Of a DNA stretch of 29,964 nt, positions 13,459-20,635 are shown one piece after another. The translations under genes were made by a program, and so were the position numbers. This DNA comes from a virus (taxonomy: Duplodnaviria; Heunggongvirae; Uroviricota; Caudoviricetes), in the IMG/VR virus record IMGVR_UViG_2778261393_000002; one strand, given 5' to 3'. The notes under the pieces were generated by a model. It was not told where the DNA came from, searched no databases, and saw only the letters and a list, made by a program, of their open reading frames with translations. The first letter of the stretch is position 1, and every line of letters starts with the position of its first letter.

Positions 13459-13612
13459 AGGATGATCCTTTTTCTATGTGAATCATCACCACTGCTGACG
13501 CCAATCAGTATGGTGGTGAACTGTGCAGGGTTGGCGTAACCGGGAAAAAGGAACCGGCGCGGATCGCTCCGCCCCCACACAGCCCACCATTGAGATGTGA
13601 CAGTGCAAACGA

Positions 13613-13637
13613 CAATAAAAAAGACGCTGGCGCGTCT
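13613..13637 (-). terminator. tR'-like Rho-independent terminator downstream of Q
   Basis: Stem AGACGC (13622-13627) and GCGTCT (13632-13637) with 4-nt loop, then a U-run on the minus strand (plus-strand AATAAAAA 13613-13620). About 95 nt downstream of the Q stop, as expected for a late-promoter leader terminator. Confidence 0.5.
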
Positions 13638-13731
13638 GTTGTCGCCTTTTTCATCCGGGACGCCAATCCCGACGCCAGATTTTGCTGGCGCGTGAGGAAT
13701 ATAGCCCCGGACAATGTGTCTGGTCAAGCTC

Positions 13732-16656: not shown

Positions 16657-16812
16657 TTACTCCTCAGGTTCGTAAGCTGTGAAGACAGCGACCTCCGTCT
16701 GGCCGGTTCGGATTCGTACCTCGCAGAGGTCTTTCCTCGTTACCAGTGCCGTCACAATGACGGTTAAACAGATGACGATCAGGGCGATTAACATCGCCTT
16801 TTGCTGCTTCAT
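16657..16812 (-). CDS. hokD: Hok/Gef-family type I toxin
   Basis: 51 aa MKQQKAMLIALIVICLTVIVTALVTRKDLCEVRIRTGQTEVAVFTAYEPEE with AAGGAG SD, matching HokD/RelF as recalled. An overlapping upstream frame (to 16869) is the mok-like reading frame. Confidence 0.85.
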   Translation of the reverse strand: MKQQKAMLIALIVICLTVIVTALVTRKDLCEVRIRTGQTEVAVFTAYEPEE

Positions 16813-17023
16813 AGCCTGCTTCTCCTTGCCTTTCGGCACGTAAGAGGCTAACCTAGATTTGCCGTTCATAGATTGAGCCTCAGATTAATGTTAAGCGTCT
16901 TGCAGGACGCGTAATGTTAACTGGGGCTTTTCTCTATCTGCCTTTGGTGTTCATGCCTGAGACAGATAGCCTCAAGCACCCGCAGCCATTCTACTTAACT
17001 CCCGTTACCTCGCCAATATAAAA

Positions 17024-17113
17024 TCAATCAGAAAGGCGATCCATAAGAACAACAGCAAGACAATAAATTGCCATTACAGCTGCAATAGCCAGCGCACATT
17101 TGAGAACCAGCAC
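17024..17113 (-). CDS. Candidate small hydrophobic peptide, 29 aa
   Basis: Perfect SD AGGAGG (plus 17119-17124), 5 nt spacer, GTG start (17111-17113). Translation (M)LVLKCALAIAAVMAIYCLAVVLMDRLSD is one transmembrane helix plus a short charged tail. Not in the supplied ORF track because it is under 60 aa. Confidence 0.3.
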   Translation of the reverse strand: MLVLKCALAIAAVMAIYCLAVVLMDRLSD

Positions 17114-17399
17114 GACAACCTCCTGTATTGGACGTACACCAGTCCTGATAAATATGAGGCTGTCTCATCATTGATGAGATACAACTATTGGGTATAGTTT
17201 CTGTGATTTTGTTCTGTAGAAATGGAACACAACAACCAGTCACCACCAGCACTTCTTTAAATACGCCAAGTCCGACGCAAGCTAACCTTCTAGTCCGCTT
17301 TGAGCGAGAAGCGGGCCTTTCGACAACCATATTTAGATGAATAGTGGGCTAGGAATACTTTAGCAATTACATTGCTAATATCAATATAAGTAGTAGATT

Positions 17400-17433
17400 C
17401 AAAAAAAATAAGCCACCTAAAAAGCATGGCTTA
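17400..17433 (-). terminator. Rho-independent terminator ending the AT-rich cargo cassette
   Basis: Stem TAAGCCA (17409-17415) and TGGCTTA (17427-17433), followed on the minus strand by an 8-nt U-run (plus-strand A-run 17401-17408). 13 nt after the stop of the 417-aa ORF. Confidence 0.6.
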
Positions 17434-17445
17434 ATTGCAAATAAA

Positions 17446-18699
17446 TTACATTTTATCAATTTCAGAAATGATCCTATCAATTTCATCAATGCTTGCTTGA
17501 ATTGTTAGATTATTTTTTATTATCTCAAGTAATTCTATTGCTCTTCTTTTGGGCCTTGATGACACCAGTTCTGAATTTGCTCTTTCATTCTCCACGAACA
17601 ACCGTGAGAGAGCCATCAATTGATTACTATTTAACACATCTAAAAATGGTTGAAGTACTAAATGTGCATCAGATCTTCCCCAGTAATTCCCCACCCAAAC
17701 AGTAAGTATTTCTTGATATACATCTTCAAATGCAATAGATGGAACATGAGGTCCAAATTGTATAAGTGCCTTGGCTGCTCTTTCTTCATCATTCCAGCCG
17801 TAAGATGTATCCTTAGCTTTAGCTAGCTGTTTAACCGCATGTCTGTATAAACTTGCCCTAGCAGCATCAGGTATAAATTTCACACCATTAACTTTTACTA
17901 AAGTCTCTAAAATTCTTATTTTTGCTCCTTTATCCTCACTTGTATCCGATTCGGGCTCCAGCATAAATGAGTGATATCTTTCCCCCGCTGTTTTTTTAAG
18001 GTCATCATTAGATCTTTCCCATGCTTGTTCAAACAACTTGCTAGCATTAACATAAGCAGGATTTTCCCCCTTAGTTATTAAATCCAATAAAAATCCAAAT
18101 GTTATTCTTATATCAGCTTGCTTAAATGCTCTTATTTGATCTTTAAGTAAGTCTATGCTCTCAATTGATAGTTCAGATTTTTTTATGGGTTCAAATAATC
18201 CAGATGGCGAATGTCCAGGGTCTGGCATATCAGATTCGAATAAATTCTTCTGGAGCATAAGAGCCAAAGCAAACACATCCTCAGACTCTACTTTACTATC
18301 ACTTGCATGGGCTGGAGAGGCATGGTTTCTCATCCAATTGATCATTTCTAATGATTTTCCAGCTTTCTTATGCAGAACCCCTAATTTGGTGGCTCCACTT
18401 ATTAGCACTAAATCATCTACACCTGACCATCTCTCGTTTATTGTTTCACCATCTTTATCATATTTTTTACGACCACTATCATCCTTTATTGCGGAAAGGA
18501 ATAAGTCTAAACCATAAGCCTCAATTCGCCGCCTAAGATTATGAATGGATGCATTCCATATATCTAAAAGAGCATGATCAGGGAAGCCAGAATCTAACAA
18601 CTTTCTAGCTTGCGAAAGGAATTCTATTTCAGTATTAACTGTTGCAGGAAAATTAGTTGTTGATGGCGAGCTTAATAAAACCGGGAGATTTTTTGACAT
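17446..18699 (-). CDS. Hypothetical protein, 417 aa (cargo gene B, candidate defence effector)
   Basis: Long uninterrupted ORF in an AT-rich segment with SD AAGGAAA upstream. No family recognised. Contains an R-x6-H motif (MRNHASPAH) of the kind seen in HEPN RNases. Confidence 0.8.
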   Translation of the reverse strand: MSKNLPVLLSSPSTTNFPATVNTEIEFLSQARKLLDSGFPDHALLDIWNASIHNLRRRIEAYGLDLFLSAIKDDSGRKKYDKDGETINERWSGVDDLVLISGATKLGVLHKKAGKSLEMINWMRNHASPAHASDSKVESEDVFALALMLQKNLFESDMPDPGHSPSGLFEPIKKSELSIESIDLLKDQIRAFKQADIRITFGFLLDLITKGENPAYVNASKLFEQAWERSNDDLKKTAGERYHSFMLEPESDTSEDKGAKIRILETLVKVNGVKFIPDAARASLYRHAVKQLAKAKDTSYGWNDEERAAKALIQFGPHVPSIAFEDVYQEILTVWVGNYWGRSDAHLVLQPFLDVLNSNQLMALSRLFVENERANSELVSSRPKRRAIELLEIIKNNLTIQASIDEIDRIISEIDKM

Positions 18700-19312
18700 T
18701 GAATTTCCTTTAAGTAAAAATTATAATCTATGTCTTTGTGAACAAATTTACACGATATTGTAACCTTGCAGGTGCAAGAAGTAGTGTTCAAATAAATACG
18801 TGAAGAGAAAAAATCCGCCATGACAAAGCTATACACTATTCCCAATTCTTAAAAAATTCAATATGTTTAAAAAATTAATTTTCAAAACTAGCATCCTAAT
18901 ACTCTAAACACACCTATATACAACTAAGGATATGAACAGTATCCTTTTATAGAAGGAGTCTGATCCCTACAGATTTAGAGATTTTAATGTTTGTTAACTT
19001 CCGCCTATGACACAGAGGTGCTGTTGCAGCCCTAAAAACCTTATGTTTTGTTCAAGTCAGAGCTATACGACGCATCGTCGAATTCAATGCCCAAGCAACG
19101 GATTGTGCTTGCCAGTTTCTTATGGTTCAACAGAGGTTCAATGATTAGTATGCTGTAAAGCAAATCTTCGAGACAAAACTTCTCTACCCCCCATGAAAAA
19201 TTTCGGTTGAATTGCCTGGGTGATGTGTGCCGGATAGCTCCAACTCGAGACTGAAGCATGAAGTCTTTACTATGAAAATTAGCAGACTGTATACGCAGCC
19301 TGCTAGTTTATG

Positions 19313-20434
19313 TTAGAGCTTATAAAGTTCAATTAATCTGGATTTTTCTCTGTCAAATTCTTCATCAAGATTTGAGAAGTCTGGAAGTGTAACCATTAAA
19401 TCCTTAAGTTGATGAATAACATTCCAGACATCGTAATGAATAAAGGGATTTAAGCCAATTACATTCCCCTCATCATTATTTTTAGATTTCCCTACACCAC
19501 ACAATTTGATGAATTTGTTGATTGCAGTTGTTTCATTCCAGTCCGAGACAAAAAGAAGCAAGGCAGATACAGCCAAAAGGGGGTTATTTTTTTTAACAGC
19601 GGATATACCCCTGATTTTCCTAAAAAGAAATTCGTGATGCCTGGTTATTTTTTGTGCAACTCTTATCGTTGCTTCATATTTTTCTTTAAGCAACCTTCTA
19701 TCATAAACCTGATAACCTCGATCTCGTGCTACTAATCGATGTGCTTGTTTAGTAAATGTGGTACTATTCACAAGATTATAGAAAACAGAATTATTTTCAT
19801 TAGTCATGTCGATCATCAATGATGGATATTTGAATCTTAACGAACGATACACTTCATCGTTTATATCAAACCAGGATTTATTTTTCCTCTCTTCATCTAC
19901 AATATATTTACTTTCTCCCTTACGGGAATACATGCTGGCCCTTATTAGATTGATCATGTGAGGGCTATAGTTAACAGAAAAAGTGCCTGACTGGCGTAAT
20001 TCTGTAAACCATTGCCGCATGTTTCGAATATCTTCCTGATTGAACTCATCATGTTCAATACCTCTACATACAAGCTCGCGAATTATACTTGTAATCTCAG
20101 AACCTGAGGTGCCGAATTTTATAAAACCATCCCTTGATGAATCTATTTGCTTATCATTACCACTGTAATGATCGCAAAATACTTTGTGTGCATCAGTTCC
20201 GTCTTTTGTTCTAAACGAAAAATGAGATTGGCTGACTATCTTATTTGTTCTTTTCGAATAACCTTCTGAAACAACAATCGCACCGCTTACATTGCAAATT
20301 GGGCACTCTGCATCAAAGGCAACAAATTCCTTGAAATCACTGAAATTGAGTGCGTTATCTGATGAGTAATGGTTTAACAATTGAACCATGTCCAATTCCT
20401 TTTTGAATGTACGAGAATAGACCGTAATTGCCAT
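19313..20434 (-). CDS. Hypothetical protein, 373 aa (cargo gene A)
   Basis: Start taken at MAITVYS (codon 20432-20434) with SD AAGGGAG 7 nt upstream. No family recognised. N-terminal Cys/His cluster (ECPICNVSG ... HKVFCDHY). Confidence 0.8.
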   Translation of the reverse strand: MAITVYSRTFKKELDMVQLLNHYSSDNALNFSDFKEFVAFDAECPICNVSGAIVVSEGYSKRTNKIVSQSHFSFRTKDGTDAHKVFCDHYSGNDKQIDSSRDGFIKFGTSGSEITSIIRELVCRGIEHDEFNQEDIRNMRQWFTELRQSGTFSVNYSPHMINLIRASMYSRKGESKYIVDEERKNKSWFDINDEVYRSLRFKYPSLMIDMTNENNSVFYNLVNSTTFTKQAHRLVARDRGYQVYDRRLLKEKYEATIRVAQKITRHHEFLFRKIRGISAVKKNNPLLAVSALLLFVSDWNETTAINKFIKLCGVGKSKNNDEGNVIGLNPFIHYDVWNVIHQLKDLMVTLPDFSNLDEEFDREKSRLIELYKL

Positions 20435-20635
20435 TTGAACTCCCTTCATCATAATTTTGGTTGTATGAAATATTATCGCATAAAGATACTAATGAGCCAG
20501 TAATATAACTAGAAACGACTTTTTGTGGTTCAGCGAACTAGACGTCCGCTCCTGGCACAAAGCGGACAACCACGCTAGCTCTACCCTGTGCCACAAAATG
20601 TCAATTTGCATCTGAACTAATGCACTTTAATCTCG

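Follow-up and report, generated by a model that had tools for sequence, protein, structure and literature searches.

A 29-codon ORF beside hok/sok in lambdoid prophages of Escherichia and Shigella and its predicted single-helix membrane product

The mRNAs of the type I toxin genes hok, tisB and zorO have long, locked leaders. A different kind of short hydrophobic peptide is represented by AcrZ, MgtS, KdpF and CydX, single-helix membrane proteins of ~30 residues that modulate larger membrane proteins; they are encoded by chromosomal core or regulon genes and have known partners. Small ORFs are also found in the nin and early-right regions of lambdoid phages, and we know of no described nin gene with the sequence of the ORF considered here. 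This ORF of 29 codons adjoins a hok/sok locus in the window, a stretch of 29,964 nucleotides of a Caudoviricetes record in IMG/VR (IMGVR_UViG_2778261393_000002). Coordinates are collected in Table 1.

Table 1. Coordinates of the 29-codon ORF and of the features around it in the window
Feature	Position	Strand	Remarks
29-codon micro-protein gene	17024..17113	-	GTG start, TGA stop at 17026-17024; predicted product MLVLKCALAIAAVMAIYCLAVVLMDRLSD
Shine-Dalgarno AGGAGG	17119..17124	-	5 nt before GTG; from sequence
-10-like hexamer CATATT	17151..17156	-	Part of conserved TTGAAT/G - 17 nt - CATATT
-35 position	17174..17179	-	TCTCAT here (poor); TTGAAT or TTGAAG in 45/52 unique relatives with aligned CATATT
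17-bp perfect palindrome TCTCATCATTGATGAGA	17163..17179		Derived state; overwrites -35
Non-coding segment upstream of the ORF	17114..17314	-	87-99% identity with one relative group, replaced in others
hok promoter TTGGCG-17-TAGAAT	16988..17016	-	Predicted; Rfam hok/sok model begins at 16981
hok mRNA leader / sok antisense region	16807..16981	-	Rfam RF01794, 110 bits
mok with hok	16657-16869 (mok), 16657-16812 (hok)	-	hok HokD-type, 51 aa; PGAP name in relatives hokD
Terminator-like hairpin, then U8	17401..17432	-	Right after the 417-aa cassette gene; -9.9 kcal/mol, z = -1.9
AT-rich cassette ORFs, 417 and 379 aa	17446-18699 and 19313-20452	-	GC 0.32-0.40

The ORF lies on the minus strand, in the same direction as hok; its strand had been left unstated in the first-pass annotation of this DNA. 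Read from 17124 to 17024, this strand presents AGGAGG, the spacer TTGTC (17118–17114), GTG, 28 more codons and TGA. The hydrophobic 29-codon ORF with a perfect Shine-Dalgarno (SD) sequence, a 5-nt spacer and a GTG start is present in the sequence and in the ORF list just as it was first described. The peptide has a GRAVY of 1.81 over its 29 aa, and its best 19-residue Kyte-Doolittle window, at residues 6–24, scores 2.7. Its predicted layout is a single transmembrane helix (approximately residues 2–24) followed by an acidic C-terminal tail of five residues, DRLSD, and the hydropathy fits one helix plus this short tail, in agreement with the earlier description of a single helix and a short charged tail. 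The placing of the ORF between hok and an AT-rich cassette also holds, with the hok coding sequence on one side and a GC content of 0.32–0.40 over 17300–20600 on the other.

Four instances of the combination of AGGAGG, 4–9 nt, a start codon and an ORF of 20 codons or more were counted in the window, whereas Markov shuffles gave 1.2 ± 1.1. The SD-plus-ORF pattern alone is not beyond chance, so the case for the ORF as a gene rests on comparative evidence. Two samples of loci were used for this purpose. The first comprises 137 loci that were located by a pattern inside the ORF, and are thus ascertained through it. Start, frame and stop are kept in 136 of these, the remaining one ends at a contig edge, and the C-terminus is altered in a few. 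The second sample, drawn to offset this ascertainment, was anchored on the hok promoter only and contains 149 usable loci. The ORF is present in 101 of them and intact in every one of the 101, while in the other 48, which have the same hok promoter, it is gone by deletion. In 44 cases one deletion joins the stop codon of the cargo gene queH to the last six codons of the ORF, and the remaining four have other junctions inside the ORF. The gene is therefore dispensable, being deleted in loci whose hok promoter is the same. No copy decayed in place was seen among the ~240 copies checked in both samples. Absence from close homologues had been counted in advance as an argument against the ORF, as had frameshifting; absence is thus observed in the form of deletion, and neither a frameshift nor a nonsense mutation was seen. 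After the recurrent deletion itself, of ~390 bp (locus L139 8911–9622 and 43 similar IMG/VR loci), a mini-frame, MDHLSD, remains downstream of an AAGGAG site.

Among the ORF-anchored loci there are 32 haplotypes, with 10, 10 and 19 variable sites at codon positions 1, 2 and 3, respectively, and a pooled pN/pS of 0.36. Relative to the window form, dN/dS is 0.10 for sequences of the L009 type, 0.23 for a copy on the Shigella virulence plasmid pINV and 0.11–0.22 for the core of a divergent form from E. coli O111; synonymous differences in the deep comparisons amount to 0.4–0.8 per site and are near saturation, and all of these selection statistics are drawn from 28 codons, which is few sites. When all six frames were compared over 84 nt, the frame of the ORF was the only one free of stop codons in all representatives, and it had the lowest pN/pS. 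The ORF contains no indels, whereas its flanks show indels of 14, 11 and 1 bp. Nearly all of 32 distinct leaders have AGGAGG, AGGAGA or GGGAGG as their SD.

These observations bear directly on the possibility that the ORF is not a gene, and that the DNA is instead conserved as upstream elements of the hok promoter or as a recombination anchor by the neighbouring cargo site, the open frame being incidental. Besides the chance-level frequency of the SD-plus-ORF pattern, such a reading could draw on the fact that PGAP usually makes no call here, that the segment flanks a recombination-prone cargo site and that it is deleted in a third of relatives. However, substitutions are concentrated at synonymous sites, neither an indel nor a stop codon interrupts any of the ~240 copies while the flanks do carry indels, and only one frame of the six is open. 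The start codon and SD are retained, the start being even improved to ATG in the pINV copy, and the segment is conserved where hok is absent. The comparative data strongly disfavour an incidental frame, which would be a most improbable explanation. Conservation in related prophages, the check that the first-pass annotation had put forward, is borne out in that frame, start and stop are intact in every copy that has the ORF. The comparisons confirm the ORF as a real gene, the predicted protein sequence of which is under purifying selection.

A related possibility is that translation of the ORF matters rather than its product, through ribosome coupling into hok or through termination control within the ORF. 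Its stop codon is only 7 nt upstream of the −35 of the hok promoter, and a terminator-like hairpin with a U-rich run is found inside it (17089–17070). This hairpin is lost in L009-type sequences, though, and was rejected as a conserved element, and the spacing between the ORF and hok differs by 33 nt in the O111 form. Moreover, the low dN/dS shows conservation of the encoded amino acids themselves, for which a pure leader would have no need. A role confined to the act of translation is thought very unlikely.

Of 5426 complete E. coli genomes, 2518 have a match to the segment that contains the ORF (17002–17330), and in 1665 the match covers 80% of the segment or more; identity is 85–99%, and a genome may contain up to five matching places. 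About a third of E. coli genomes have the gene in a prophage. The segment is also found in four sequenced coliphages (Tritos, Evi, mEp460_ev081 and HannyBb), in genomes of E. albertii, E. ruysiae and Shigella, and in more than 120 IMG/VR contigs. No annotation lies under any of the E. coli matches listed for the segment, and for the RefSeq genomes closest to the window, as far as the matches listed go, the ORF was rightly called unannotated. This does not extend to other records: the exact peptide is deposited in GenBank as GCZ25347.1 and variants of it as OSK45992.1 and ACT39199.1, under the names hypothetical or membrane protein, and for one variant there is a 'MULTISPECIES: hypothetical protein [Enterobacteriaceae]' record, seen on 650 contigs. 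Three short MAG contigs (L011, L012 and L014), labelled Collinsella, Candidatus Scatousia and Haemophilus, contain the E. coli prophage segment and are most likely binning contaminants.

At the protein level, Pfam, NCBIfam and PHROGs gave no family match, only sub-threshold hydrophobic noise (ATP synthase c, E about 0.01–0.1; phrog_19319, E = 0.74). The search for protein homologues was run with a 41-aa upstream-extended translation in place of the 29-aa query. A family profile built from 13 members was searched against 1.84 billion representative proteins and returned 17 matches, all of them small proteins from E. coli that share the same core, ALA-[IV]-x-AV-x-x-[IV]-YCL-x-V-x-LM-[DE]-RL. Conservation in the family does not extend to Cys6 of the window peptide. 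Divergent members include MLAALKGFVAILAVVAIYCLVVVLMDRLSD, MLIIKGVLAIVIVVAIYCLVVTLWERLSD and an EHEC form, MSDDISLAMEGALAVVAVVGVYCLVVFLMDRLGN; a tblastn search of phages with the divergent EHEC form found no match. This EHEC form, from E. coli O111:H- 11128, has 34 aa and was called by PGAP as a hypothetical protein (WP_001278454.1). It has a GGAGG site and is located directly upstream of the hokD promoter, within a run of tiny early-operon ORFs. The window and O111 forms have ~50% amino-acid identity, and both are found immediately upstream of the hok promoter. In the same O111 genome (L199 23630–23707) there is an unannotated hydrophobic ORF of 25 aa, MNWPEAFAITGVAMAIAFLVYVICR, with a GGAGG site; its ATG overlaps the stop codon of a DUF551 gene, and 41 nt separate it from the 34-aa homologue downstream.

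The pair formed by the O111-type ORF and hok is also present on an IncY (P1-like) plasmid, where the ORF has a PGAP entry (WP_077779993.1). Neither this entry nor WP_001278454.1, GCZ25347.1 or ACT39199.1 has a function or family name attached to it, and the peptide strings of the family were not found in the literature searched. The locus is absent from the Rac region of K-12, and there is no homologue of the ORF at hokW of phage 933W. The family is, on this evidence, uncharacterised and confined to lambdoid prophages of Escherichia and Shigella, together with prophage fragments on Shigella pINV and a P1-like plasmid. It constitutes a new family of predicted small membrane proteins.

The genomic context of the ORF is that of a border. 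It closes a variable cargo site on the right-hand side, lies between a DUF977 gene of the replication module and hok/sok, and has the direction of the phage early-right operon. The cargo between the DUF977 gene and the ORF in relatives includes SIR2, QueH and ParA-like genes as well as plus-strand genes of no known function. In the window, a non-coding gap of 330 nt upstream of the ORF is followed by the AT-rich two-gene cassette. Neither cassette ORF has a match in Pfam or PADLOC, and the cassette could be a candidate for an undescribed defence or accessory system. The segment directly upstream of the ORF tolerates 14-bp and 1-bp indels and is therefore non-coding. A 100-codon ORF in another frame (17028–17330) was rejected as spurious, as relatives have 14-bp and 1-bp indels there. 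Directly downstream of the small ORF, on the same strand, is a complete hok/sok locus, with no terminator between the two. The terminator-like hairpin and U8 after the last cassette gene imply that the small ORF would need its own promoter or antiterminated read-through.

Two further observations concern the surroundings of the ORF. In E. coli B (L007 2573–2932, C3029) the DUF977 gene has been cut down to 119 aa by a deletion and overruns the start of the ORF in another frame; the 29-codon ORF is intact in this copy, which is annotated in the REL606 and BL21 GenBank records, and the promoter-like site described below is gone. Elsewhere on the minus strand of the window (13509–13704), Rfam matches at the gathering level to C4 antisense RNA (74 bits), the a1/b1 target (52 bits) and isrK (79 bits) adjoin the Q-like antiterminator region, which indicates a putative P1/P7-type C4-controlled module in this lambdoid prophage.

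A promoter-like site precedes the ORF in most contexts. Homology among otherwise unrelated upstream flanks starts at TTGAA(T/G)-17-CATATT, and the CATATT hexamer is invariant while 16 different spacers occur. This −10 is located at −43 from the start codon in 51 of 62 unique contexts. A transcription start is predicted near 17144, with a leader of ~35 nt. The conserved arrangement looks like the phylogenetic footprint of a weak sigma-70-type promoter. The O111 form is found without it, so that an 'own promoter' may not be a general property of the family.

In the window copy the −35 position is occupied by the palindrome. The first-pass annotation had noted this 17-bp palindrome but misplaced it: the repeat is real, and it lies 50 nt upstream of the GTG (Table 1), not 40 nt upstream at 17151–17167. 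Only 14 of the 137 ORF-anchored loci have the perfect palindrome, and the others read TTGAATCA(A/C)TGA(T/C)GAGA. Compared with the common quasi-palindrome, TTGAATCAATGATGAGA, it shows three adjacent substitutions, and its left arm is now the exact complement of the right. A three-base change of this type is typical of a hairpin-templated mutation (quasi-palindrome correction) and does not point to a conserved operator. A function of the palindrome as operator or terminator was rejected, as the perfect form is derived and most copies lack it.

The architecture of the ORF had originally been compared to that of type I toxin peptides. A new toxin of this type would be a membrane-depolarising peptide with an mRNA checked by a cis- or divergently encoded antisense RNA, and would form a second module beside hok/sok. 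In its size, single hydrophobic helix and strong SD the ORF does resemble TisB, ZorO, Ibs and Fst, and with its promoter-like site it makes up a compact module that occurs both with and without hok. This part of the comparison stands. The other part is not supported, in that no conserved antisense promoter or terminator and no locked mRNA were found and no known toxin family was matched in Pfam, NCBIfam or PHROGs. In addition, the ends of the peptides are acidic, not basic (DRLSD in the window form, MSDDISLAME in the O111 form), and the O111 homologue is part of a run of small early-operon ORFs, not a stand-alone module. An origin from Hok was also considered and rejected; there is no Pfam match to the Hok/Gef family (PF01848) at E <= 10, and BLASTP did not align the peptide with HokD at E <= 100. 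Only five residues follow its helix, in contrast to the Cys-containing periplasmic domain of Hok/Gef.

Two sites on the plus strand could in principle give rise to an antisense or divergent RNA. The first, TTAACT-18-TAAAAT (16995–17024), would start an RNA antisense to the ORF. However, only 26 of 62 contexts have its −10, contexts that lack hok are without it, and there is no terminator after the site. A search for an overlapping antisense RNA had been proposed for this ORF and, when run, returned nothing better than this −10; no conserved antisense promoter or terminator was found at the ORF, and a search of Rfam at a permissive threshold gave nothing besides hok/sok. The second site is divergent (TTGATG-16-TATAGT, 17171–17198) and retains its −10 in 45 of 62 contexts, which would suit a divergently encoded antitoxin. 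It would drive a plus-strand RNA of ~115 nt, 17205–17320, to a hairpin at 17293–17316 (GUCCGCUUU...AAGCGGGC, then CUUUCG). A role of this RNA as a regulator of the ORF gained no support: its fold has a z of +0.6 and the 10-nt repeat that gives it complementarity to the start region does not co-vary. The divergent site may serve plus-strand cargo genes in other phages.

The mRNA of the ORF was also inspected for structures that would hide the SD. In folding with alifold, the 3' end of the ORF offers a partner for the SD, CUUUCUG, in 51–56 of 56 sequences. However, the pairing shows one-sided changes only, contains three G-U pairs and is not present in the single-sequence MFE fold. The fold of the mRNA has a z of −0.16 compared with shuffles, and the short predicted leader is open, with the SD exposed. 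Two leader hairpins, GGAC...GTCC and CUG...CAG, are not kept across leader variants. No conserved leader hairpin, no compensatory changes and no stable conserved structure hiding the SD were found in the mRNA. An exposed strong SD, a constitutive-type promoter and the lack of an antitoxin would be hard to square with a potent toxin present in up to five places per genome. The type I toxin reading is weakened by these features but not refuted; on balance it seems unlikely.

The icsP regulatory region of the Shigella virulence plasmid pINV has been heavily studied. A copy of the ORF that starts with ATG, MLVLKGTLAIAAVMTIYCLIVVLMERFSD, is found there on pINV plasmids (135 records) and on related E. 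coli plasmids. Its DNA is 77.7% identical over window positions 17213–16929, and it is followed by the hok promoter and ~55 nt of a truncated hok leader. The icsP start codon is 291 bp downstream of this copy, which lies at approximately −288 to −199 from the icsP transcription start site (TSS) and is intact on every Shigella virulence plasmid examined (L137 5001–5090, from pWR501, NC_002698.1 220153–220239; also L138 and L202). In strain M90T (CP037924) the ATG of the copy is at about 90997 on the minus strand. A published dRNA-seq table of TSSs for pWR100 of this strain lists icsP starts at 90709 and 90726, then one at 91318 on that strand, and nothing on the other strand between 90219 and 91397 (PMC7132871 supplement 4). 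Under the conditions used for this table, the sole usable TSS map, the pINV copy has neither a TSS of its own nor an antisense TSS, and this lack of a start on either strand also speaks against a toxin with an RNA antitoxin.

The pINV copy is likewise relevant to a possible partnership with Hok, in which the micro-protein would modulate Hok in the membrane (by dampening, enhancing or targeting it) or transcription of the ORF through the hok promoter would tune hok expression. Two forms as different as those of the window and O111 are both positioned immediately upstream of the hok promoter, and an ORF-hok pair has moved together to the P1-like plasmid. The hok promoter is directly downstream in 120 of the 137 ORF-anchored loci, and no terminator separates the ORF from hok. 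However, adjacency alone explains this co-occurrence, and each is also found without the other: the ORF without hok in 14–17 loci, and the hok promoter without the ORF in 48 of 149 loci and, for hokW, in 933W. On pINV the ORF is kept beside only a stump of the hok leader. A dedicated partner of Hok is considered improbable.

The explanation favoured here, with moderate confidence, is that the ORF is a true gene and encodes a 29-residue micro-protein that would span the membrane once, probably as an accessory factor. Its function is deduced from size, hydrophobicity and position only. Transcription would start from the weak sigma-70-type promoter TTGAAT-17-CATATT, the −35 of which would have been lost in the window copy to the palindrome-forming mutation; antiterminated read-through from the early-right promoter could replace or add to this. 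Against an own promoter are the pINV copy, for which the M90T TSS map has no start at the predicted promoter, the degenerate −35 of the window and the O111 form without the site. The open AGGAGG/GTG site would allow efficient translation, the helix would insert into the inner membrane, and the micro-protein would most probably act as an accessory factor of the 'moron' type that binds or perturbs a membrane component. A self-contained RNA-controlled toxin is unlikely. It is doubtful, too, that the product serves as a companion of hok/sok (an RNA-independent membrane effector or a modulator of Hok) or is the founding member of a new family of type I toxins.

Small membrane proteins are systematically missed by annotation, and the present family is widespread, clearly under purifying selection and without a literature. 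At a prophage site with exchangeable cargo, the ORF is also the fixed right-hand border and therefore a useful landmark for mining this hotspot. If it were a companion of hok or a new toxin after all, the pINV copy could be an overlooked player at the intensively studied icsP locus. If the micro-protein is inert, on the other hand, this would still show that a type I toxin should not be named from a toxin-like appearance alone (short, hydrophobic and with a strong SD).

Compared with known systems, the ORF shares with the type I toxins Hok/Gef, TisB, ZorO, ShoB, Ibs, DinQ and Ldr a length in their range (19–51 aa), one hydrophobic helix and a prophage or mobile-element context, and it directly adjoins a true hok/sok locus. 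Unlike them, it has no sequence relationship to these toxins, no demonstrable RNA antitoxin and no long structured leader, its flanks are acidic rather than basic, and one lineage of the family (O111) is embedded in an operon. AcrZ, MgtS, KdpF and CydX resemble it in having ~30 residues, a single helix, a strong SD and a conserved motif in and just after the helix. No toxicity is required for their function, and the product of the ORF is assumed to be of the same type. In contrast to these proteins, the ORF is prophage-borne and dispensable, and the profile search found no homology to them. The third comparison is with the small ORFs of the lambdoid nin and early-right regions and with morons. 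Unlike the products of most nin ORFs, that of the present ORF is predicted to be embedded in the membrane, and it has no PHROG match. The ORF nevertheless resembles this group in its location between the replication genes and the Q antiterminator, its orientation, its mosaic distribution and possibly a promoter of its own, and the O111 form is set, like nin-region ORFs, in a string of tiny ORFs that includes another hydrophobic one of 25 aa.
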